From contig JBEKVV010000007.1 in assembly GCA_049513715.1 (NCBI GenBank), forward strand, positions 29,142 to 93,141: a stretch of DNA of 64,000 nucleotides, read 5' to 3'. The notes below the pieces were generated by a model, which did no database searches, was not told the origin of the DNA, and saw nothing but the letters and a program-made list of their open reading frames with translations. Below, piece after piece: positions 12,106 through 25,600 of the stretch (positions within the stretch are counted from its first letter, which is position 1; each line of letters starts with the position of its first letter). The position numbers were made by a program, and so were the translations under genes. The stretch comes from Candidatus Bathyarchaeia archaeon (lineage in GTDB: Archaea > Thermoproteota > Bathyarchaeia > 40CM-2-53-6).

Positions 12106-12876
12106 ATGATTGAGTTAATCGAAGGGCGCATAGCACAGCTCATACTCCTCATCATCGTGCTAGCCGCTATCTATGAGGTAACACGCATCGCCCGCGGACG
12201 AAAAATGAAGACACGGGGCATCCCAGGCCTGGAAAGGCTAGATGGGTGGATTAAGCAGGCAGGGACCCTAGATCGAAGTGTATTCTTCACTCCTGGGACT
12301 GGTGCAGTCACGTACCCGGACACGCTTGCCGCATTGGCGTTGCTTGAATATGTGGCAGAACGTTGTGTCGAGCAGAACGTCAAATTAATCGTCGGTAACG
12401 CGGATTTGAACGTGCAACAAGTCGCAGAGGACATTGTAAAGACGGCGTACACCAAAGCAGGCAAAGCAAAGGAATACAATCCGGACATAGTCCGCTTTAT
12501 CTCCGGAAGGCAATTCGCTTTTGCAGCGGGCGTAATGGGCATTCTGCGTCGTGAGAAACCTGCCGTTAACATATTCGTTGGGGATTTTTCAGCAGAAGCA
12601 TTGGCAATCGCTGAAGCGGGCCGATCCGATGCGATTGCGCAGTTCGGTGGCACAACGAACGTGGACCAACTACCCTTCTTCATGGCCACCTGCGACCTGA
12701 CGCTCATAGGTGAGGAGCTATTCACTGCACAGGGTTACTTGAAAAATGACCCGGATACCATTTCGACATATGTTGGGCCCGATGCAGGAAAAATCATAGC
12801 GATTCTATTGATCCTCGTCGGGGCCATCCTCGTTACGTTCGGCAACCAAATTCTGGTTAGCCTACTGGACCTGTGA
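12106..12876 (+). CDS. DUF6754-like membrane-anchored protein
   Basis: R.IPGL, FAAGVMG...REKPA.NIF.G.F.AEAL, QLPFF...CD..LIGEELF. Confidence 0.8.
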   Translation: MIELIEGRIAQLILLIIVLAAIYEVTRIARGRKMKTRGIPGLERLDGWIKQAGTLDRSVFFTPGTGAVTYPDTLAALALLEYVAERCVEQNVKLIVGNADLNVQQVAEDIVKTAYTKAGKAKEYNPDIVRFISGRQFAFAAGVMGILRREKPAVNIFVGDFSAEALAIAEAGRSDAIAQFGGTTNVDQLPFFMATCDLTLIGEELFTAQGYLKNDPDTISTYVGPDAGKIIAILLILVGAILVTFGNQILVSLLDL

Positions 12877-12886
12877 GGTTTGAAAA

Positions 12887-13579
12887 ATGGCTACAACTAA
12901 ACGCAAAATGACCCGAGAGGAGCTAATTCTTCAAGTCATAATTTTCTCGTTAGGGTTTTTCTTCGCTTTTGTCTACTACGTTAGGGTATCAGAACCCATA
13001 GACTTGCAGGCAGTCTCACAACAACTGTTCGCCTACCTGACCGCAATGCTTACCGCCGCTTTCGCAATCGGCATGATTAACCTCACCCGCGTTCACTGGA
13101 TCAACATCAAGCGGAAGCGAGCGACCTGGAAATTCAGCGTCATACTCATTGCTTCATTGTACGGAATGGCCATAGTTAGCTTGATTTCGTCGCCGTTCGC
13201 ATTGGATCCACAAGCCGCAGTTATACCTCAAGGCGTCATCAATTTGTTCAACCCAATCTTCGATTTCTTGTACTACAAAGTCCTTGTCACAATTAACTCC
13301 AGCATCTTCTCACTCCTAGCCTTCTTCATCGCATCAGCCGCCTACAGGGCATTCAAAGCCCGATCACTAGAGTCAACTATTCTTCTACTCGCAGGGCTCT
13401 TAGTGGTCATAGGGCAAGCACCTGTTGCGGACGTTGCTTGGCCAGGTTTCGCCACAATACGGGACTGGATCCTAGCATACCCAAACACAGCAGGGCAAAG
13501 GGGAATCCTGATTGGTGCAGCACTCGGTATTCTCGCGTTCAGTGTTCGGCGCATGATTCGCTATCCGTGGGGAAGATGA
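12887..13579 (+). CDS. Integral membrane protein (DUF6754 operon)
   Basis: Multi-TM, FSLLAFFIASAAYRAF and PNTAGQRGILIG motifs. Confidence 0.8.
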   Translation: MATTKRKMTREELILQVIIFSLGFFFAFVYYVRVSEPIDLQAVSQQLFAYLTAMLTAAFAIGMINLTRVHWINIKRKRATWKFSVILIASLYGMAIVSLISSPFALDPQAAVIPQGVINLFNPIFDFLYYKVLVTINSSIFSLLAFFIASAAYRAFKARSLESTILLLAGLLVVIGQAPVADVAWPGFATIRDWILAYPNTAGQRGILIGAALGILAFSVRRMIRYPWGR

Positions 13580-14425
13580 ATGAACAAATACAAAGTCGCT
13601 TCTGATCCTCGAATGATCTATGTTCTCTTGGCACTGGTGGTTACTGTGCCGATACTCACCCATTCGGTACTGCCAGTTCCTATTAGTGACACAACGCGGG
13701 CGGTCTTCGATTACATTGACAAATTACCTGCCAACAGTTTAGTTGTTCTGAGCTTCGATTACTCTACCAGCGTAGTTCCAGAACTTCATCCGCAAGCAAT
13801 AGTCGTGACCCAACATGTGTTCTTACGACCGCTGAAGGTACTGTTTGTGGCACAGTACACTGACGGTCCAGCCCTCGCAGACGCGGTGCTTGACGCGATT
13901 AACAAAGGCAACAAGACATATGGCGTCGACTACGCCACTCTAGGGTATATTCCGAATTCTGCAACAGTCATAGGAATGACGACAAACCTCCAACAGTACT
14001 TCCCCGTGGACACCCGCGGCACCTCCACGAACGACCTCCCTATCATTCGAGAGTTTCCAGCCGCAAAGATGACGTCCCTACTCGTCTCGTTCTCGGCAGG
14101 AGATCCCGGTTTATTGACGTACCTTCAGTATTGGGAAACCCCCTATGGTATTCCGACTGCCGCCGGCTCCCCGGCTACCCTCGCGCCTGGGTATGAGCCG
14201 TTCTATAATTCTCATCAGATCGTTGGCATACTCATCAGCATGCGGGCGGCGGCAGAATACGAACTCCTACTCACCGCTGAATACCACACACCTATTGGAT
14301 TAAGTGGAGCTACGTCAGCAATGGTCGCCCAATCAAGCTCTCAAATGCTCATTGTTGCTATGGTCATTGTGGGAAACGTAGCCTATTTTGTCGGAACCCG
14401 ACGCACCAAGGGGGCCCCCAAGTAA
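13580..14425 (+). CDS. Membrane-anchored protein with large soluble domain (DUF6754 operon)
   Basis: N- and C-terminal TM, SFDY....PEL.PQ, YGVDY..LGY, AAEYE. Confidence 0.8.
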   Translation: MNKYKVASDPRMIYVLLALVVTVPILTHSVLPVPISDTTRAVFDYIDKLPANSLVVLSFDYSTSVVPELHPQAIVVTQHVFLRPLKVLFVAQYTDGPALADAVLDAINKGNKTYGVDYATLGYIPNSATVIGMTTNLQQYFPVDTRGTSTNDLPIIREFPAAKMTSLLVSFSAGDPGLLTYLQYWETPYGIPTAAGSPATLAPGYEPFYNSHQIVGILISMRAAAEYELLLTAEYHTPIGLSGATSAMVAQSSSQMLIVAMVIVGNVAYFVGTRRTKGAPK

Positions 14426-15178
14426 ATGGTTAACATTTTCAACGTCATCGGGGTCTGGGTCGCAGTCTTCCTCACACTGATGGTCCTGAGCTTCCTTTAC
14501 AAGGAGAATCCGTTCTTCCGCTTAACGGAGTACATTTTCATCGGATTAAGCAGCGGGTATGCTTTCGCAGCTTCTATCAGGTTATTCATCAACCAAGCTT
14601 TGAACCCCATTTTCGTTAATGGCAGCTTCGATTTCATTATCCCAGTTATACTGGGCGCACTGTGGTATACGCAGTTCAGCAAGAAGTACTCGTCCCTCTA
14701 CCGCCTTCCCCTAAGCCTCGCCATTGGATACGGGCTGGGAATTACAATCTGGAGCATCATGCAAACCTACTTCGTGCGACAAATCAGCGCAACCATGATC
14801 CCAATTTTCACCGGCGACATCGTTGGAACCATTGATGCCCTCGTCCTGGTTCTGGGAACAATCCTCTCATTGTCATATTTCATTCTACACAGAGAACAGA
14901 CGGGCGCGTGGGGTGGCGCCACGAAAATTGGAAAATACTTCGTTCTCGCGACACTTGGAGCTGTTTTCGGAAGCACTGTGCTCGGCCGCATGGCGCTTAT
15001 CATACAACGCGTCCAATTTCTAGCCGGCGACCCGGCGTTTCCCTGGCCTGCCTTGAGAATGGGAACGGCGCAGGATGGTAGTCTGGCTCCTGTTGCAATC
15101 GTCTTCTTTCTGATAGCTTTCGGTGTCTACCTATATCGGGAGCGCGGGAAACCACCCAACAACGTCAAGAAAACATGA
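14426..15178 (+). CDS. Integral membrane protein (DUF6754 operon)
   Basis: SFLYKENPFFR..E.IFIG, FG.TV.GR...I.R.QFL. Confidence 0.8.
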   Translation: MVNIFNVIGVWVAVFLTLMVLSFLYKENPFFRLTEYIFIGLSSGYAFAASIRLFINQALNPIFVNGSFDFIIPVILGALWYTQFSKKYSSLYRLPLSLAIGYGLGITIWSIMQTYFVRQISATMIPIFTGDIVGTIDALVLVLGTILSLSYFILHREQTGAWGGATKIGKYFVLATLGAVFGSTVLGRMALIIQRVQFLAGDPAFPWPALRMGTAQDGSLAPVAIVFFLIAFGVYLYRERGKPPNNVKKT

Positions 15179-15179
15179 A

Positions 15180-15458
15180 TTACAGTTTGCCTTTCGAAAG
15201 CTCCTCTATCCGCTCAATGATCCTGCCCACGTTCTCTTTCTTCATGAACAATCCCGTGTACTTGGGTCCCTCTAGTTCGAATAACCACTGAAGCGGTCCC
15301 AAGGCGAGGATCGCGAACTGGGACGCAATGAAAGAGAATGGCCGCGTGGCTTCAAGGAACATGATTGCGGGGGCTTCAAGCCCCTTATCTACAACGAGCC
15401 TTGCAATGTTGTTTATCAGTTTCCTTTCTTCTTCATCGGTCAAATCAAATTCCGACAA
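15180..15458 (-). CDS. Conserved hypothetical protein
   Basis: GLEAPAIMFLE..RP.SFIASQ motif. Confidence 0.75.
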   Translation of the reverse strand: MSEFDLTDEEERKLINNIARLVVDKGLEAPAIMFLEATRPFSFIASQFAILALGPLQWLFELEGPKYTGLFMKKENVGRIIERIEELSKGKL

Positions 15459-15478
15459 CTTGCCAGAATCTTCCCGCC

Positions 15479-16240
15479 TTACACTGAGCGGAAGACGGTT
15501 TCTTCCGGGTAAACTTCGATGCCTTCAGACGTTATCCGGTACGGGCAGAGCCTATCAGTGTGTTTAGCGCCTCGCATCTTCCTGACTTCAAGTGCCTTAA
15601 CATTCGACTCTTCTACACGGTACATATGCAGGACAATGACCCCTTGGGCAAGGAAAGCCTCGGCACCGAACCTAGTCACGTCCTGTCTATCCTCCGAGTT
15701 CTCCGCCAACATGAAAGTCGTGAGGTCCATCTCAGTGAGCTCTTTAATTAGGCGCAGCGTTTGCTGGCGAATATCAAAATCTTCTTTGTATTGCAAGGTA
15801 AGCGCTGAAATCGAATCTATTACACAACGCTTCGCGCCGATCTTCTTCTTTACTTCCGCGATCGCGTTGACAACGTTGTCGATGTTGAATTTGGCTGCAC
15901 CAAGGAAACTTTGCTGAAGCGCGGTTGGAACGAACGTCCCCGTCCTCTCCCGCTTAATGGGGGAGACGTCAACAAATCCGAACTTTCCTGTCTTTTCCTC
16001 TTCGGAAATGTTCCAACCGTACCTCTGAGCGTTGCTCGCGATGGAATAGGGTGGTTCGTCAAAAGTAACGTACATTCCGTTCTCCCCAAACTCAGTCGCG
16101 CCCTTGTAGAGGTATTGAACACCGAAAGTTGTCTTACCAGTGCCAGGGCCGCCAAGTAGCAGGAAACTATAACCTCTGGGCAAACCGCCTTCAATCAGTT
16201 CATCCAACCCCTTGATCCCAGTCTTAACTCGCTCATCCAA
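15479..16240 (-). CDS. KaiC/RAD55-like ATPase
   Basis: TGIKGLDELIEGG, Walker A GGPGTGKT, Walker B VIDS, KMRG; start approximate. Confidence 0.9.
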   Translation of the reverse strand: MDERVKTGIKGLDELIEGGLPRGYSFLLLGGPGTGKTTFGVQYLYKGATEFGENGMYVTFDEPPYSIASNAQRYGWNISEEEKTGKFGFVDVSPIKRERTGTFVPTALQQSFLGAAKFNIDNVVNAIAEVKKKIGAKRCVIDSISALTLQYKEDFDIRQQTLRLIKELTEMDLTTFMLAENSEDRQDVTRFGAEAFLAQGVIVLHMYRVEESNVKALEVRKMRGAKHTDRLCPYRITSEGIEVYPEETVFRSV

Positions 16241-16349
16241 AGCTAGAACCAGACCTCCGTGCCCAGAATGGACGGCCAACTCGATAATAAGCACTATCAA
16301 TAACTTCGTGGACTCAATCTACCAAAGTTCAAGCAGAAGGGTTACGCTG

Positions 16350-17843: not shown

Positions 17844-18397
17844 TCAAGGCAGCTCAATGTCCGAGCGAGGATTCTTGCTACCCTGATTGGCTCGGGTAGG
17901 CGTGAGATTGTGGCTGTGGAGCGAATTATGCTCCTCGCATGGGCAGGAGATGCTCCCTTCACCTCGAAGAAGAGTTTTGGTTCGTTTCGCAGGGGTTTAC
18001 ATGAGTAAAGTGGCCCTGCGTTTTGCACGGCTTCCCAGCGTTCCTTCCAATCCTTGAAGTGCTTACGTAGTGCCCTGTAGACTGCCGCATTGTGTGGTTT
18101 TTCACCACTTACCGCGATAACAGGCCTCTTCGTGACCCGCGCAAGTTTGGCAATGTCCACAACGTTGAACCCCCCAAACGAAACTCCTGACAACATGGCA
18201 ACATTATGTGGCACAGTCTTCAAGAGCGCCACCATCTTAGCATTGGAATCTCGACCGTCAACTTCTATGCGACTCGTTTTAACACTCTGTACGCGTAGGC
18301 CTTGGAATAGAACGGCCACTAGAAGCGTATGTTGTATCGTTTGTTTGTTCGGACGGAAGGCGCCATCGTCGACTCCGACAATGCGCAAGTCATGCAT
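17840..18397 (-). CDS. DUF99 family (endonuclease V-like) protein
   Basis: IVGVDDG, LSG..FGGFNVVD, PEPIRVA; overlaps the cdc6 stop. Confidence 0.85.
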   Translation of the reverse strand: MHDLRIVGVDDGAFRPNKQTIQHTLLVAVLFQGLRVQSVKTSRIEVDGRDSNAKMVALLKTVPHNVAMLSGVSFGGFNVVDIAKLARVTKRPVIAVSGEKPHNAAVYRALRKHFKDWKERWEAVQNAGPLYSCKPLRNEPKLFFEVKGASPAHARSIIRSTATISRLPEPIRVARILARTLSCLD

Positions 18398-19643
18398 GGT
18401 GTTTCTGTAACGATTTCGGGACGTAACCAAACAATCTGCCAGCAAGATTATCCTCGGCGTATGTGTCGGCGATTACGCGAGGAGCGACCCCGATTCTGAT
18501 CTTCTTGGTTCTCCCGTAACGGCCGAAACTCACGACCCGTGCGTTGAGTATGCCCATCACGTCCAATTCGTTGATTAACCCACTAACCCTCCGTTGTGTT
18601 AACGGTTCCAAGTCACTCATTGAGCAGAGTTCATGGTAAACCTCGTAAACGTCTCCCGTTATCGCCCCGCCCGGGGCCGGCAAATGGTTGTTCAGGAGAT
18701 ATGCCCCAACAAGCAAGATCTTTGAGTGGGCAGGCAGAGATTTCAACACCTCCGAAACGCGGTCGTGCTCAATCTTTTGCTGCGCCAAGCGAACGTGCTG
18801 CTCTTGCACATGGGCACCCCCTTCTCGCTCCGCTAGTTCCCCAGCAACCCGCAGAAGATCCAAGGCGCGCCTAGCGTCACCATGCTCGCCCGCTGCTAGG
18901 GCCGCACATAGCCTGACAGAGTTCTCCTCAACGCTTCCCTTCAAGAACGCAACACTAGCTCTCTCTTGAAGAATATCGAACAGTTCATCTGCGAGGTACG
19001 GGCGAAAGACAACCTCTTCCTCACTGAGCGAACTTAGAACCCGCGGATCCAAGAATTCTTTGAAGTGAAGGTCGTTAGATATTCCGACGACACTAATCCA
19101 GGACGAGTTGAGGTTCTCGTTTATCCTGGTCAGCTCGTATAGTAGAGAATCATCAGCATTATGCTTTATGAGAGCATCAATCTCGTCCAAGGTAACCAAC
19201 AGCGCTGTTCTATCTGCGTTGATTCCATTCGAAAAACGGTCCAACAGCTCCCCAACAGCAATCCCTGTAAATGGAACGTCGACGCCAATGGCTCGACAGA
19301 TTTCTGCCAGAACGCGGTAGTTCGTTCCAGCCAAACGACAGTTAATGTAGGCAAGCTTCACTGGTGCCCCTAGTTCATTCGCCTTCTTCTCCAGCTTGTC
19401 GAGAACGAACTTCGTGACGATCGTCTTTCCGGTCCCAGTCTTGCCGTAAACGAAAACGTTCGATATCTTAGATTGGTGAAGTGCTGGCGCAAGTATACCC
19501 GCAAGACGCTGAATATGCTCGTCTCTATGCGGCAGGTGCGGAGGCATGTAATCATGCCTAAGAACATCTCTTTCTGCGAAAATCCTCGCTGGCGAGAGAT
19601 ATTTGTCGAATATACTTTCTAGGGCGTCCGTTGTGGTTGTGAT
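18390..19643 (-). CDS. cdc6: Orc1/Cdc6 replication initiator (probable ATC start)
   Basis: YGKTGTGKT, LDEID, GDARRALDLLR, wHTH with GRYGRT; conserved N-terminus extends 32 codons beyond the ATG at 19547. Confidence 0.95.
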   Translation of the reverse strand: MTTTTDALESIFDKYLSPARIFAERDVLRHDYMPPHLPHRDEHIQRLAGILAPALHQSKISNVFVYGKTGTGKTIVTKFVLDKLEKKANELGAPVKLAYINCRLAGTNYRVLAEICRAIGVDVPFTGIAVGELLDRFSNGINADRTALLVTLDEIDALIKHNADDSLLYELTRINENLNSSWISVVGISNDLHFKEFLDPRVLSSLSEEEVVFRPYLADELFDILQERASVAFLKGSVEENSVRLCAALAAGEHGDARRALDLLRVAGELAEREGGAHVQEQHVRLAQQKIEHDRVSEVLKSLPAHSKILLVGAYLLNNHLPAPGGAITGDVYEVYHELCSMSDLEPLTQRRVSGLINELDVMGILNARVVSFGRYGRTKKIRIGVAPRVIADTYAEDNLAGRLFGYVPKSLQKHHA

Positions 19644-19649
19644 TTAGTC

Positions 19650-20190
19650 CACCTCCAATGGTAATGCCACCATTGCATGTTGAAACATTGCTAACCATTC
19701 TTGTACAAGAAAACCAACTAAAACCACTGGAATGACGTGCTATGAACCGTGGGTACTACTCTCAAAAATTGTTGTAAACCATTAACAAGAGCAATGAAAG
19801 AACCCCCGCACCCCTACGCTTCCACTCCAAACACGATATGTCATTTGGTGGATGGGAGTAGGGGAAAGAAAATGTCATTAGTAGCTGCGCAGAAGATGCC
19901 TAAAGTACAATGTGTCAGTTTCTGTATACAACATACTCAATTTTTCCAGTGCTGAATGAATCAAGTGCATTGATAGAATTTATTGAATAGTCCAGTTGAA
20001 ACAGAGGGGTTAGGCTTCTCTATACACCCTTAATCAGTAAGTACTTGTTCGCAAAACATGTGGACAACAGTTGAACAGCACAATTACCCCTTCATTTCCA
20101 GTGCACGGTCTATTTTACCGATGGAAATGACCATACTTATGGATCAACAACTATGTTCAACTTATTACATGTGGACAGCTACTATTCAGT
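19650..20190. other. Replication origin oriC with ORB elements
   Basis: ORBs TCCAGTTGAAACAGAGGGG (19991-20009,+), TGCACTGGAAATGAAGGGG (20087-20105,-) and weaker AGTGGAAGCGTAGGGG (~19811-19826,-) in AT-rich DNA upstream of cdc6. Confidence 0.85.
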
Positions 20191-20199
20191 TGGTCTTCC

Positions 20200-20592
20200 A
20201 TGAAAAAAAAGATCAAACTCGAATTTTTCGATCGCGCCGGCGTTAAGCACAGCGTCGCGATTGAGGGAGACCTTACGATAGACAAAGTGAACCGGCTCTT
20301 GGAATACGCTGAGATTGTTGCTGAGTCAAACCCAACCACGACTCTTCCTCATACCCCACACGAAAGCAAAATGAACCGGCTCTTGGACGTAATTAACACA
20401 AAACTCTCGGACCATAGCTTCGACTCGAAGGAGCTCTGGCAAACCTACAGTGAAACTTGGGGAGACGATTTCAGCTTCGGAGCTGTCTCAACATACCTTT
20501 CACGCCTAGTGGATCGGGGAACTCTTGAGAGAAGTGGGTCTACATCACACTGGCTGTACAGGCTCAAGCCTTCTCCGACACTTTCGCAGTGA
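20200..20592 (+). CDS. Origin-adjacent protein with C-terminal winged helix
   Basis: FDSKELWQTY...GAVSTYLSRLVDRGTLERSG...WLYRL wHTH pattern. Confidence 0.8.
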   Translation: MKKKIKLEFFDRAGVKHSVAIEGDLTIDKVNRLLEYAEIVAESNPTTTLPHTPHESKMNRLLDVINTKLSDHSFDSKELWQTYSETWGDDFSFGAVSTYLSRLVDRGTLERSGSTSHWLYRLKPSPTLSQ

Positions 20593-21262
20593 GTGTTTTC
20601 TCGGCAGACTCAATCGCCGACCGTGCCGTATCAGTCACCTTATACCTAAAGGGAGCATGATTCGACTCCCTGTCGACATACCCCTCTTGGTACAGTTTCT
20701 TCATTAGCCGTGATGTGTGTTCCCGAGATTTCTCAAGTCGCCGTCCCAATTCAGGCGCTGCCTTCGGGCCTTCCAGGCTAAGGATTTCAAGCGTTTGTCG
20801 CTCAGTCGATGTCAAGGAACTCAGAATATCACCGCCACCGATGAATGTTCCAGTCCTTTCACGTTGAGATGTACTTGCTGGAACGGGGGGCGCCTGTTGA
20901 GCTGCTGCGACCTTCGTCTTCAACTGCTCAAGCTCCGAAATCAGTTTCTTGTCATTGGACAGGATCTCCTCAAGCCGGTCCAAGAGCTGCAAATATCCAG
21001 TCCGGAGCTTGGCTTGGTCTTCCTCCAAGTTGCCGTTGCGCTGGTTTAGCGCCTCAAACCCTGATTTGACCTCGTTCACAATCGATTCAGAGACCTCAAC
21101 CCGCGATGATAACGCGTCCACAACTACACTGATCAGAGAGGCTGATTCTGTAACCGCTTGCTTGCTCTGCTTGAAATAACGTACCGTCTTTCTGCCCACG
21201 GCCAAGACGAAAATCAGCACTACAATTGAAGCGGCGTCAACAGCAACAGCGAATGGATCCAA
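20564..21262 (-). CDS. Membrane-anchored coiled-coil protein with C-terminal wHTH
   Basis: N-terminal TM helix, heptad region, then LTSTERQTL...APELGRRLEKSREHTSRLMKKLYQEGYVDR. Confidence 0.85.
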   Translation of the reverse strand: MDPFAVAVDAASIVVLIFVLAVGRKTVRYFKQSKQAVTESASLISVVVDALSSRVEVSESIVNEVKSGFEALNQRNGNLEEDQAKLRTGYLQLLDRLEEILSNDKKLISELEQLKTKVAAAQQAPPVPASTSQRERTGTFIGGGDILSSLTSTERQTLEILSLEGPKAAPELGRRLEKSREHTSRLMKKLYQEGYVDRESNHAPFRYKVTDTARSAIESAEKTLTAKVSEKA

Positions 21263-21269
21263 GGCTCAA

Positions 21270-21569
21270 TGACATCACGTCACCCTGAGTGTTTTAACCT
21301 CTTCGCACAACGTGACATCACACGGCATCAATGACATCACCGTGATGGTGATGTGACGAAGCGATGATGAAGCGTAATCTCACAGTGATGTCACAGAACC
21401 CAACTGCCAGGAGTTTCGCAGCACAGAAACGCCTTGTTTTGAGGTTTCTCGTTGAAATCGGTGGCTGAAAACCTTTCCACCATTCAAAGCAGTGAGTTGC
21501 CATGTCACGTGATGTCACACCTGGGTTCATGATCGGGAAAGCGGAGCTCACATGTCAATGTGATGTCAC
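21270..21569. repeat. Cluster of six TGACATCAC/GTGATGTCA motifs plus partial copies
   Basis: Exact 9-mers at 21270, 21313, 21332 (+) and 21385, 21509, 21560 (-). Confidence 0.9.
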
Positions 21570-22012
21570 AGGATGTCTTTGAAGCTTTGTCGATTGGCGA
21601 GGGCTGAGATGCCTTCCAGAAGTCTATGATTGAGTTGCTCCACGGCGGTTCGATCTGTGGGAGTGTTCTTACGCAATTCTTGGGCGTAGCTTTGGATTGT
21701 GTCGGATAACTCAATGAATGGCTGAAGGGCCGCGTTGTCGAACAAACCAACGTACCCCAGCAGTAAAACGGTGTATATTGAGCGAATTACGTTATTTTGG
21801 GCTTGCAATAGGCTTCGATTATAGGCGCCACGGCTAATTCTCGTCTTTGACGGCCTGAAAAGGGGTCTCTTACTTTTTTTGGCGTCGGTTGATAGGGACT
21901 CAGCCAGTAAGGTTTCCAGTTGGGCGCTGGTCAGTTGACTGTTCGTCAGAAGGAGCTTCGTCACGGGGTCACGTAGCTGGTCGCGAATTGATTCGCGGGC
22001 ATCTGAAGCCAT
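21566..22012 (-). CDS. Conserved hypothetical protein, HTH_10-like DNA-binding signature
   Basis: LTSAQLETLLA...ISRGAYNRSLLQAQ resembles the LT..Q..L / IS......L..A HTH pattern. Confidence 0.75.
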   Translation of the reverse strand: MASDARESIRDQLRDPVTKLLLTNSQLTSAQLETLLAESLSTDAKKSKRPLFRPSKTRISRGAYNRSLLQAQNNVIRSIYTVLLLGYVGLFDNAALQPFIELSDTIQSYAQELRKNTPTDRTAVEQLNHRLLEGISALANRQSFKDIL

Positions 22013-22275
22013 GTCTGGTTGTTCCGAGGTTGGTACTCCCCAGTGGATACGCTTTTGTATTCATTTAAGGCCTTTTCCGCCACCCAAGTTGCAGGCATGA
22101 CCTGTTGGTTCCGGTTCGCGCGACGAGGGCTCCCAACATTCGATCGATCGTCAACGTCCCATCACGGATTTTCTCGCGGCCAAATCACCAGTAAGAAGAT
22201 TGATGTCTACAATATGGAAGCTTGAAATAACCCGCTCCATCATCACACTCTGCAACTAGAGAAGTGGAAGTTAAG

Positions 22276-22542
22276 TTGGGTCGACGGCGAAGAAGGGTAG
22301 TCAAAGTAGTCAAGAAGAAGCTTCCAACAGTATTCACTTGCCCTTCATGCGGCGAAGAGTCGATCCGCGTGAAGCTTCCCCCGGGTGCCGGTATGGCAAC
22401 TGTGCAGTGCGGGTCGTGTGGCTTGAAGCAAGAATTTGAGGCGACACCATCGAGCCAGATTGTGGACATATACTGCAAGTTCACTGACACCTTCTATGGA
22501 AAAGATAGGTCTCCTGCGGAGAATCCCCAGCAAACTGCTTAG
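22276..22542 (+). CDS. elf1: Transcription elongation factor Elf1
   Basis: MGRRRRR..KKKLP..FTCPSC...CGSC...VDIYCKF.D. Confidence 0.9.
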   Translation: MGRRRRRVVKVVKKKLPTVFTCPSCGEESIRVKLPPGAGMATVQCGSCGLKQEFEATPSSQIVDIYCKFTDTFYGKDRSPAENPQQTA

Positions 22543-22617
22543 TATCAGTTTGGCCCTTACGAAATGGCCTCTCAGTGTTAAATCGGGGCAGGGCATCTTC
22601 TAGACTAGGCCACTTCA

Positions 22618-25600
22618 ATGGGGGAAACGGTTCTCAGTGGAAATGATGCTTATTTCCAACTATTGAAGAGCCAATTCGATGAAATATACGACCTTGCGCG
22701 ACAGGCACGTGCGAAAGGGTTCGACCCTTCACGTGAACCGGAATCACTCGTCACACATGATGTGGCGGAGCGGGTTGAGAAGGCAGTAGGACCAGCGGGA
22801 ATCGCGGCCAGGATCCGCGAGCTCTCACTTCTCATGCAACGAGAGCTTGTGGCGCTGAAAATCGCGGAGGAAATCTCTCTTGGAGGCTATGCTGTTGATG
22901 GGGAGAGAGCCGCTGAACAAGCTGTGAGAACCGCCTCCGCGATATTGGACGAAGGTATAACCGCCGCGCCGATTGAAGGCATCTCGAGTGTCAGAATAAA
23001 GCAGAATCAAGACGGATCAAAGTACTTAGCCGTTTACTTTGCCGGCCCCATCCGGTCTGCCGGCGGAACCGACATGGCTCTCATTCTGGTAATCGCAGAC
23101 TTCGTTCGACACGAGTTGGGTTTGGGAAAGTACAAGGCCACTGAGCTGGAGGCCAAGCGTTTCGTAGAAGAGTTGCGTCTCTATGAACGAGAGGTTGCAC
23201 GGTTCCAGTTCAAAGTATCAGACGAGGAGCTATTCAACGCTATCATGCGTCTGCCTGTTGAAGTAAACGGCGTTGAAACCGACCCGTTTGAGGTTAGCGC
23301 CTACCGCAATGTTCCAAGAATAGACACAAACAGAGTGAGAGGCGGGGCTCTGAGGGTTGTTCATGATGGACTGATTGGGAGGAGCCACAAGGTCCTCAAA
23401 GTTGTGGAAGGCCTGAGCATTGAAGGATGGGGCTGGCTGAGGGAAATCAAACCACCAGTACAGGAGGCCGATGAAGCACGTGAATTCATGTTCATGGAAG
23501 ATGTCTTGGGAGGGCGGCCCATCTTCTCATTCCCCCAGTTTCCAGGCGGTTTCCGTCTCAGATATGGCAGGGCACGAAACACTGGACTAGCCGCCATTGG
23601 ATTACACCCATCAACCATGATCGCCCTAGGCAAGTTCATCGCAGTTGGAACGCAATTACGATTGGAGAAACCAGGAAAAGCGGGCATAGCGGCATCGGTT
23701 GATACAATAGAGCCCCCCATTGTCAAGCTCAAAGATGGCTCCGTTGTCAGACTTTCAGACCCACATGAGGCAGAGGAGGCAATTGATTCCATTGAGATGA
23801 TTCTATTTCTCGGTGACCTGCTGGTGGGCTTTGGAGAATTTCTTGAAAACAACCGTCCACTCCTACCATCAGGTTTTGTTGAGGAATGGTGGGCTGAACT
23901 AGTCAAGCTGCGTTCGACCGCACCCTACGGCGGGGTAAAGGATTTGTCAGAACACGTAGGAATCGACCGGGAGCGATTATCGGGATTCATGGAAAACCCG
24001 GCGGACTTCGCACCCACTGTGGAAGAGGCGCTGCGGTTCGCGAAGGGTTCAGAGGTACCTTTGCACCCCAAGTACACTTGGTTCTGGGATAATATCGACC
24101 CCGCCGATTTTGACTACCTACGGGCCCGATTTGCGGATTCAAACTTGACCAATCTATCACGGGAACACATCTCCACAAAGAACGAGTCACGAGTGAAGGC
24201 GATTCTGGAAAACCTGTGCGTACCGCACAAAGTCAAAGACGGCAGTATTCACCTTGACGACGAGTCTCCGATTATGCACGATTGCCTGGGGCTATCTTCC
24301 CCTCTAGGAGCTATAGAGGGTAAGGATGTCTTCGAGAAAATACTGCATGCAAGCGGCATGCGAGTAATGCGGAAAGCCCCTGTATACGTAGGCGCCAGAA
24401 TGGGTAGGCCAGAAAAAGCGAAAAGGCGCGACATGCGCCCCGTCGTTCATTGCCTATTCCCGTTGGGCTTGGCTGGAGGGGTTAGGCGGAACGTAATCGA
24501 AGCCGCAAATGCGCACTCATTGATTTCGGTTGACATTGCATTCCGAAAATGCGCCAAATGCGGCAACGTGACCCACTTGGGACTCTGCGAAAAATGCGGG
24601 GAACCCACCAATCAGGCATTTTGGTGTCAGAGGTGTGGGGCTGAGAGTAAGGAGAAAACCTGCCCATCGTGCAAGGGCAAGGCCCAAGCTTATGATCGAC
24701 GGAGTGTCGCGCTTCGGGACCTCTTGACCTCGGCCGAACGAAGGTTGGCGCTCACAGTCGTTCCGGAAGCAGTAAAAGGAGTGCGGGGCCTCACAAACGA
24801 CACGAAGACCCCAGAGGCCCTAGAGAAAGGGCTGCTGCGAGCAAAGCATGATGTGTCAGTTTTCAAGGATGGGACAATTCGGTTCGACGCGACGAACGCG
24901 CCGCTCACCCATTTCAATTCGAAAGAAGTGGGAGTTCCAGTAGACAGGCTAAGGCACCTAGGTTACACCCACGACATAACTGGCAGACCCTTGGAATCTG
25001 AATCACAATGTGTTAACCTCAAAGTTCACGACATAATCGTCCCTGGACAGTGCGGAGACTATTTCGTCAGCGTAGCAAAATTCCTCGATGAAATGCTTCA
25101 AACATTCTACGGCGTGCAACCTTTCTACCGAGCAAAAAGTAGGCAGGACATGGTAGGTCAGCTTGTTGTCGGGCTTTCTCCCCACACCTCAGTTGGGGTA
25201 ATCGGCCGAATAGTGGGGTTCACACAGGCAAGCGTCTGTTTCGCCCACCCGTTTTGGCATGCTGCCAAGAGAAGAGATTGTGATGGCGACGAAGATTCAG
25301 TTAGCCTCGCCCTTGACGTACTTCTCAATTTCTCGAAGCATTTCCTTCCATCAAGGATTGGGGGAATCATGGATGCACCTATCCTTCTCACGGTGGCGAT
25401 GAAACCGAGGGAAATTGCGCGCCAAGCCTTCAATATTGAAACCCAAGAACGCTTACCTCTTAGGTTCTACGAAGAAGCATCGCGACGGGCCGACCCAAAG
25501 GGTTTGGCCGCACTCATTGAGACCGTTCAGGCCCGCCTCGGAACCGAAGGAGTGTTGGAGTCACTTGGCTTCACGCATGGCGTGAACGATGTTAACAGTG

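Follow-up and report, generated by a model that had tools for sequence, protein, structure and literature searches.

A conserved origin-proximal array of TGTGAY half-sites and its probable winged-helix binder in Bathyarchaeia and related archaea

We analysed a 64,000-nucleotide stretch of the genome of a Candidatus Bathyarchaeia archaeon (contig JBEKVV010000007.1; hereafter the window, to whose positions the coordinates refer), in which an array of short half-sites lies between two genes, B and C, close to a predicted origin of replication. The locus is of the Bathyarchaeia type and its closest named relatives are Bathyarchaeia. The gene order is DP1, endonuclease dU, cdc6, predicted oriC, A, B, array, C, elf1, and DP2, which agrees with the placement of the three open reading frames, cdc6, DP1, Elf1, and DP2 in a preliminary description of this DNA made from its letters. 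Next to the orc1/cdc6 initiator gene (18390..19640, minus strand; TIGR02928, 408.8 bits) lies the predicted oriC (19641..20199), with boxes resembling origin recognition boxes (ORB) at 19811-19829 (minus), 19991-20009 (plus), and 20087-20105 (minus), in a layout such as that described in PMC4010727. Gene A (20200..20592, plus strand), divergent from cdc6 across oriC and overlapping the 3′ end of B, encodes a 130-residue protein with a small N-terminal domain and a winged helix-turn-helix (HTH). Gene B (20564..21262, minus strand) encodes the predicted array binder, a protein of 232 residues formed by an N-terminal membrane helix, a long helix, a disordered linker, and a MarR-like winged HTH. 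Gene C (21566..22012, minus strand) encodes an all-helical protein of 148 residues that belongs to no family.

The preliminary description had listed six exact copies of one 9-mer, and we recovered all of them: TGACATCAC is found at 21270, 21313, and 21332 on the plus strand and at 21385, 21509, and 21560 on the minus strand, with a one-mismatch copy at 21348. As had also been described, four copies form a GTGA-N2-TCAC palindrome (21312, 21385, 21509, and 21560); these are four of the five GTGANNTCAC matches in the window, for a shuffle mean of 1.03. The CATGTCA-type partials seen ahead of some copies precede those at 21509 and 21560. The palindrome is best written GTGAYRTCAC, and its half-site TGTGAY. 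The B-proximal part of the array, cluster III (21270..21394), contains around ten GTGAY/RTCAC half-sites and two full palindromes (21312 and 21385), and cluster II (21502..21569) contains the other two (21509 and 21560), the latter including the TGA stop codon of gene C. A third, upstream cluster (cluster I), known from relatives, is absent in the source genome and its genus, where clusters II and III are retained. The array lies 1.17 kb from the ORB-like boxes at 19991-20009 and 20087-20105, in keeping with the distance of about 1.2 kb first given.

What is unusual about the array word is its clustering, not its abundance. Indeed, the 9-mer is not over-represented in the 2.79-Mb source genome, G000 (31 copies for 19-25 expected from Markov models), and GTGAYRTCAC occurs 16 times for 10.7 expected. 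By contrast, the 300-bp window at the array contains 15 GTGAY/RTCAC half-sites, versus nine in the genome runner-up and a mean of 0.99, so that a cluster said to be unmatched elsewhere in the window is in fact the densest such patch of the entire genome. Moreover, 53 9-mers are present in at least five copies within 400 bp in the whole genome, the other 52 being overlapping words from five tandem or simple repeats, and the array is the sole non-tandem case. A search for an RNA gene gave no Rfam match up to E = 1 across 19500-22700. As a separate observation, a dispersed family of GC-rich palindromic repeats with a GTGTATACAC core (nine core copies) supplies six or seven of the other GTGAYRTCAC sites of the genome; its copies in G000 are found at C1:8168, C1:544525, C1:721471, C2:143451, C2:418797, C2:429972-430224, C3:520621, and C9:10563, and the family may be of the repetitive extragenic palindrome (REP) or miniature inverted-repeat transposable element (MITE) kind.

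The presence of A, B, and C was called in 301 genomes sampled throughout the phylum, of which 169 yielded B, 134 C, and 200 A, almost always as one copy, three previously missed B copies being recovered with a broader B model. The loci studied in detail are the best-scoring ones (the best 80 of 598, and 30 each in two other searches) together with 60 chosen stretches, and do not form a random sample. Among them, the motif proves to be conserved at orthologous loci: the palindrome lies within −25 to +70 of the stop codon of C in 116 of the 118 unique loci with co-oriented C and B. A meta-profile of 72 loci reveals three half-site peaks over a background that is flat to 7 kb. Cluster III occupies the same position in relatives, TGTGAYRTGTGA boxes bracketing the TATA-like box of B in other Bathyarchaeia, and a second, mirror-image site (cluster I) is found 833-1107 bp upstream in 46 of the 71 loci with sufficient sequence. 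As to the geometry of the sites, the palindrome spacer measures 2 bp in 161 pairs and 6 bp in only 3, direct repeats of the half-site peak at 7 and 11 bp, and the 16-bp tripartite unit (half-site plus palindrome) has 11 of its 11 matches at the locus in four of five genomes, with none in the fifth.

Clusters I and II are thus mirror images either side of C, and this arrangement is what a recombination element could produce, the palindromes by the 3′ end of C being then attB sites, dif-like sites, or the ends of an invertible cassette, not a protein-coated array. The genome G210, in which a stretch of 4.8 kb holds all five palindromes, these being part of decayed tandem copies of the 3′ end of C that include the site, would fit such an explanation, as would the inversion of C relative to B in lineages f31 and f37. 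However, the orientation of C relative to B is constant in Bathyarchaeia-class loci, no recombinase is found among the conserved neighbour families, and the sites disappear when B does and otherwise come as numerous half-sites spaced with periods of 7 and 11 bp, among them those at the B promoter. Furthermore, dif sites lie at the terminus. We consider a recombination element to be most improbable here. Two loci deserve mention in their own right. In L191 (G210:C15:50188-54978), the decayed copies of the C 3′ end with its site block are both tandem and inverted and stand about 1-1.5 kb apart, with hypF inserted before B; in G012 (L020/L029/L043), A and B both look frameshifted and the array is intact, sequencing error being possible.

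Which protein reads the array? In genomes where B was not found (f8 and f2 from the same order, f41, and f43), 12 of 12 loci present no palindrome and 0-4 half-sites per 250 bp, C and usually A being retained, and C adjoins A directly in the f8 and f2 loci and in some of f41 (a further two loci that show no B were left out, their contigs ending there). On the contrary, 159 of the 188 loci with B carry at least six half-sites, versus 1 of 188 for the reversed-motif control (some genomes are counted twice). A tree of 45 C proteins requires four changes of the B-less label, at least two of which are forced by well-supported branches; the array has been co-lost with B in two to four independent losses. 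The array is kept where C was not found (f25, f38, f40, f46, f47, and f50-52), and also where A was not found (f11 and f40). Since it is lost while A and C stay, each with its own motif, either of these proteins is disfavoured as array binder. The lineage f17 is among those that run against a strict B-array rule, a palindrome remaining there at the stop of C, 1.3-6.7 kb from B.

The recognition helix of B (20699..20728, minus strand) points in the same direction. It reads S179-R-E-H-T-S-R185-L-M-K, with the Arg/Glu/Arg pattern of CRP R180/E181/R185, the residues through which CRP contacts TGTGA (PMC11253593). B relatives have the pattern S/T/A-R-E-H-x-x-R. In two sets of matched B proteins, numbering 158 and 148, there is no exception at E, H, or the second R, and the first R is present in 156 and 148, two off-pattern sequences per set having been left out. 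Two f24 B proteins in which K replaces the first R have 1-2 half-sites each. We regard it as highly probable that B reads TGTGAY half-sites through a CRP-like recognition helix. Of the system proposed in the preliminary description, the membrane-anchored protein is the likely array reader, but the idea of three proteins acting on one array is not retained, C having its own operator, A its own enriched word, and each gene being lost separately.

Beyond this helix of R-E-x-x-x-R form and the TGTGA half-site common to both (PMC11253593), CRP of Escherichia coli and B part ways. As described, CRP uses a 6-bp spacer and a domain binding cyclic nucleotide monophosphates (cNMP), whereas B has a 2-bp spacer, extra half-sites at 7- and 11-bp periods, and a MarR/ArsR-like fold. 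TrmBL1 is, like B, an archaeal winged-HTH protein with a similar half-site (the Thermococcales motif is TATCAC-N5-GTGATA), but its half-sites face opposite ways, and it is described as having a large regulon and effector control, with no membrane helix or origin linkage (PMC4706686). B would be neither a CRP nor a typical MarR.

The model of B (mean predicted local distance difference test, pLDDT, 82.7; predicted template modelling score, pTM, 0.34) consists of a single helix over residues 3-122, a disordered linker, and the winged HTH. B has the winged-HTH core of the MarR family; MarR proteins are small soluble dimers whose N- and C-terminal helices form a ligand pocket, and the N-terminal part of B is a membrane helix and a 120-residue helix. 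Fold matches are of the MarR/ArsR type (best 2eth, Z 13.4, root-mean-square deviation 2.1, 90 aligned), AspA coming at rank 21 as one of many winged HTHs. Pfam MarR passes its cut-off (25.6 bits for 24.6), HTH_Crp_2 stays below its own, and TrmB is a weak match; a profile search against PDB sequences returned one MarR protein and two designed coiled coils. There is no Pfam match to a cNMP-binding domain in B, the N-terminal half of which is one long helix, nor to ParB_N or RHH in A, B, or C. Strong hydrophobicity marks residues 4-22 (hydropathy 2.74), after which come basic residues; a cytoplasmic C-terminus is therefore predicted, which would leave nothing outside the membrane to sense. Of the 79 unique named loci, 73 encode the membrane helix, as do 95 of the 120 loci overall, and the long helical stalk is retained throughout the relatives. 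The public names of these relatives are generic ("MarR family transcriptional regulator", "predicted transcriptional regulator"). Annotations in Nitrosopumilus include proteins closely related to that of f20.

The two other genes, A and C, would each regulate themselves beside the origin without their products reading the array. The word TGTGAA is enriched 10.7-fold upstream of A (117 of 146 regions) and at the oriC edge, also in B-less genomes, and may represent A's own sites within the origin; TGTGAA-related words are seen in the oriC of the window at 19678, 19782, 20059, 20144, and 20170. For its part, C has a palindrome, GDATACA-N4-TGTATHC (22045..22062), beside its TATA-like box, which is the top genome match of its matrix. 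This putative operator is present at 144 of 157 C loci, for 0 of 157 with a control inside C, and is retained in B-less f8 and f43; in f41 it shifts to TTGACA-N4-TGTCTA, which offers a natural test of C specificity. C would probably be a DNA-binding protein that regulates its own gene and has no part in reading the array. The label "HTH-like" first given to it finds weak structural support: its model is weak (pLDDT 66), VIA-align gave helical hairpins only (best Z 6.3), Foldseek returned nothing at E ≤ 0.001, and the Atlas matches are Tfx/sigma-4 look-alikes with a template modelling (TM) score of about 0.45. For A and C, profiles run against PDB sequences gave nothing significant.

The position of cluster III brings us to the function of the sites. 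The predicted transcription factor B recognition element (BRE) and TATA box of gene B (21292..21304, minus strand; GAAGAG..TTAAAA) lie between two array sites. Half-sites of cluster III stand on both sides of the TATA-like box and extend over the predicted transcription start, likewise in relatives. Binding of TrmBL1 downstream of a promoter causes repression (PMC4706686). Given this rule and the place of cluster III over the predicted start, B quite probably represses its own promoter.

A simpler alternative, already envisaged at the outset, is that the array is just a multi-operator autoregulatory promoter. It suits the cluster over the B start site, but the distal clusters lie away from promoters. 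Indeed, a distal cluster is found about 460 bp inside an aminotransferase gene, where codons are locked at the site: V155 GTG in 22 of 22, S163 TCA in 22 of 22, R164 CGT in 21 of 22, and V165 GTG in 22 of 22, the median fixation of the codon columns of this gene being 0.48 and only 2 of 121 other columns reaching at least 0.95. The distal site persists in a frameshifted, decayed copy of the aminotransferase gene, and is intergenic where the gene is gone. In the same way, in f20, TCA-CGT-GAY is fixed within the coding sequence of B itself, as a second cluster, in 8 of 8 loci. An origin of the half-sites as Shine-Dalgarno or stop-start artefacts was rejected, because they occur on both strands, between genes as well as inside genes with locked codons.

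Extended to the whole locus, the regulatory explanation makes B a membrane-tethered one-component transcription factor that plays no mechanical part: a main operator is joined by auxiliary ones that loop out gene C or the B promoter, and the position by the origin sets cell-cycle timing through gene dosage. Operators of the auxiliary kind are known within genes, as for lac O2. To the arrangement of cluster III around the TATA-like box and the start are added, in favour of such a role, the like self-operator logic of A and C, the MarR/ArsR-like fold and the public names of B, the dispensability of the membrane helix in several lineages, and the fact that TrmBL1, with its similar half-site, is an ordinary regulator (PMC4706686). 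On the other hand, genome scans for half-site clusters and for the 16-bp tripartite site revealed no B target beyond its own locus; we saw no ligand or sensor domain in B, including outside the membrane, and its long stalk is retained throughout; and B is still found by the ORB boxes where cdc6, A, or C has gone. On balance, a purely regulatory role seems rather unlikely to us, though clearly less so than the other alternatives.

This linkage to the origin is itself widespread. B lies a few kb from cdc6 in most Bathyarchaeia-class loci and in f20, f24, f30, f31, and f37, and the two genes are still close in the rearranged loci L067, L107, and L108 and in f17. In lineages without cdc6 near B, 9 of 9 ORB matches in five genomes lie at most 5.1 kb from B, and in five genomes cdc6 was found 115-194 kb from B (two genomes) or on other contigs (three). 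In 24 further genomes, 28 of 42 ORB matches lie within 5 kb of B, in 15 of the 24; five have no match and four have matches elsewhere only. The ORB pattern gave no match near B in f20, where the boxes may differ. B stays by ORB boxes, at origins which are themselves predicted, even where cdc6, A, or C has left, and the origin linkage first proposed for this window is found in distant lineages as well. For Nitrosopumilus maritimus, one mapped origin is described (PMC4010727, PMC5333045).

Two observations on the neighbourhood can be added. A small HTH-like gene of about 100 codons (family F29) and an HTH-CBS gene recur beside ORB boxes and B where cdc6 has moved away (L155-L173, L180, and L191). 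In many Bathyarchaeia, a herA-nurA-like pair, named by sequence reading, lies between B and A and shifts the array about 2.6 kb further from oriC (L051, L058, L066, L069, L086, L089, L174, and L176).

B could also control replication, by sequestering or licensing the origin next to it, either through membrane holding of new origins or through titration as the array doubles, and would then time initiation, not segregation. Its linkage to the ORB boxes rather than to the cdc6 gene, its single copy among polD, cdc6, and elf1, and the lack of any motor partner found for it would all suit this explanation. However, the array stands off the ORBs, 1.2 kb away here, about 4 kb with the herA-nurA insertion, and more than 12 kb from cdc6 in f27 and f32, and the oriC-cdc6 pair persists without B in f8. 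We judge such a control of initiation to be decidedly unlikely. Further away, beyond DP1 (window 12106-16300), lies a run of membrane-protein genes (a DUF6754 gene and three mostly unnamed ones) plus a kaiC-like ATPase gene.

Dedicated partners of B were sought among the known partition proteins. No ParA partner is found near B, and the absence of ParA/SegA noted early at this locus extends to the source genome as a whole (no match at E ≤ 1e-15); a tblastn search of the latter with the f41 ParA reached only E 2e-6. A role of B as a ParB-like loader of SMC was rejected, SMC and B not co-occurring. As a side observation, C and SMC share their presence and absence by family over 50 genomes, but these are largely one clade and not independent. 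In B-less f41, 5 of 7 loci (L184:1918-6480, L185, L186, L188:5158-6395, and L194) carry, immediately upstream of C, parA and a small gene without a Pfam match, and two of the loci also have parB at a distance of about 2 kb. The small gene looks SegB-like by reading only. It is suggestive, in one lineage, that the locus recruits partition genes.

Several known systems associate an origin or centromere array with a protein that links it to the envelope or represses its own promoter, i.e., RacA/ram in Bacillus subtilis, RocS in Streptococcus pneumoniae, and ParR/parC of plasmid R1. RacA needs DivIVA, and ParR needs ParM. In haloarchaea, the oapABC genes form a GTPase module and remind us that conserved origin neighbours need not act in replication. 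The closest likeness to B that we found is the bacterial RicO as published: there, DNA-binding domain, coiled coil, and membrane-binding end belong to one chain, a layout that is predicted for B as well, and neither protein has a dedicated ParA. RicO recognises origin-proximal sites, as B very probably does. The order of the parts is reversed according to the same description, RicO having an N-terminal DNA-binding domain and a C-terminal amphipathic helix, and B a predicted membrane-spanning helix at its N-terminus.

In Archaea, the reviews consulted on chromosome segregation name only SegAB, AspA-ParB-ParA, and HpaAB. The array resembles a centromere in being a clustered site near the origin and upstream of the gene of its binder. 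For SegB/segS and AspA too, the site lies directly upstream of the gene of the binder, with one full form per genome; segS consists of three 7-bp repeats, and AspA, a winged-HTH protein, spreads out from a palindrome (PMC12139799, PMC13722703, PMC5120986). In contrast, SegB and AspA are described as soluble, with a ParA-type ATPase in the same operon, whereas no ParA gene adjoins B, and the protein has a membrane helix and a long stalk. B thus stands apart from SegAB, AspA-ParB-ParA, and ParABS, in which the ParA ATPase is encoded with the binder (PMC12139799, PMC13722703, PMC5120986, PMC7617429). Moreover, B resembles AspA no more than it does many MarR proteins. Our literature search found no description of the locus, but most subscription papers and supplements were outside its scope, and one may be in print.

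B and the array form a real, deeply conserved, and uncharacterised origin-proximal protein-DNA module with a well-supported binder. Starting from the array, its uniqueness and conservation, its co-loss with B, the locked codons, and the origin linkage, all of which are observed, the reading we favour overall is that of a self-limiting nucleoprotein patch by the origin that would anchor oriC DNA to the membrane, working like RicO but built differently; we see this prediction as having an even chance of being right. B dimers would read TGTGAY half-sites, and B would load on, coat, and bridge the site clusters, two to five in number, that neighbour the predicted oriC, while capping its own expression by repressing its own promoter. 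We lean towards the formation of dimers or loops by B. The membrane-rooted helical stalk, estimated at about 14 nm if fully extended, would hold the patch and oriC at the envelope, and origins would thereby be positioned for partition without a dedicated ATPase. This predicted positioning role of the tether could equally well prove right or wrong. In lineages whose B has no membrane helix, the protein would either depend on a partner or be limited to organising the origin.

Several observations weigh against this reading. The strongest cluster lies on B's own promoter, as with an ordinary operator, and the nine ricS sites are described as spread over about 700 kb, whereas the B clusters lie within 0.3-5 kb, including that promoter. 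The membrane helix is absent at 25 of 120 loci, including all those of f24, f25, f38, f40, f44, f46, f47, and f50-52 and a few in Bathyarchaeia, and the lineages showing origin linkage without cdc6 are those whose B has no membrane helix. For f27 and f32, the distance between B and the top cdc6 is 12-32 kb in four of five genomes, and the ORB pattern has no match near B, although the boxes may differ. Two f8 genomes retain an intact oriC-cdc6 without B, and B was not found in f8, f2, f41, and f43, nor in 132 of the 301 phylum genomes. Arrays are weak or missing at some B loci (f9, f24, f4, f22, f30, f31, and f37): f9 retains R-E-H-x-x-R, yet has 1-3 sites, and f4, f22, f30, f31, and f37 have 3-4. 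CRP itself is not among the listed fold matches of B, and A's word TGTGAA resembles the B half-site, which leaves open some cross-binding. As for partners, a ParA (AAA_31) match at E ≤ 1e-15 is missing from G000 and present in only 6 of 26 genomes with B, in none of them next to this gene, and the distribution of SMC does not follow that of B (9 of 50 genomes have B without SMC, and 9 of 50 SMC without B). Lastly, 2 of the 7 f41 loci lack the parA insertion, and the B-positive genome G065 carries elsewhere a strong ParA similar to that of f41.

In its broadest form, the anchoring reading describes an ancient centromere-and-anchor system, independent of ParA and SMC, in Bathyarchaeia, ammonia-oxidising archaea, and their relatives: B would coat a few kb by oriC and fix the origin to the envelope, and would have been replaced by parA/parB in one lineage that lost it. 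We advance this tentatively, as somewhat short of an even chance. How chromosomes are positioned and segregated is an open question in most archaea, and the locus gives access to it through a named protein with three putative contact residues, a predicted binding site, and lineages in which natural loss has occurred. The group concerned includes Bathyarchaeia and Nitrosopumilus, and the latter is cultured and has a single mapped origin, so that the role of B can be tested there. Even if B were only a regulator, the locus would bring three new origin-adjacent DNA-binding proteins with predicted motifs; if the anchor reading is true, B would be the first archaeal origin-membrane anchor.

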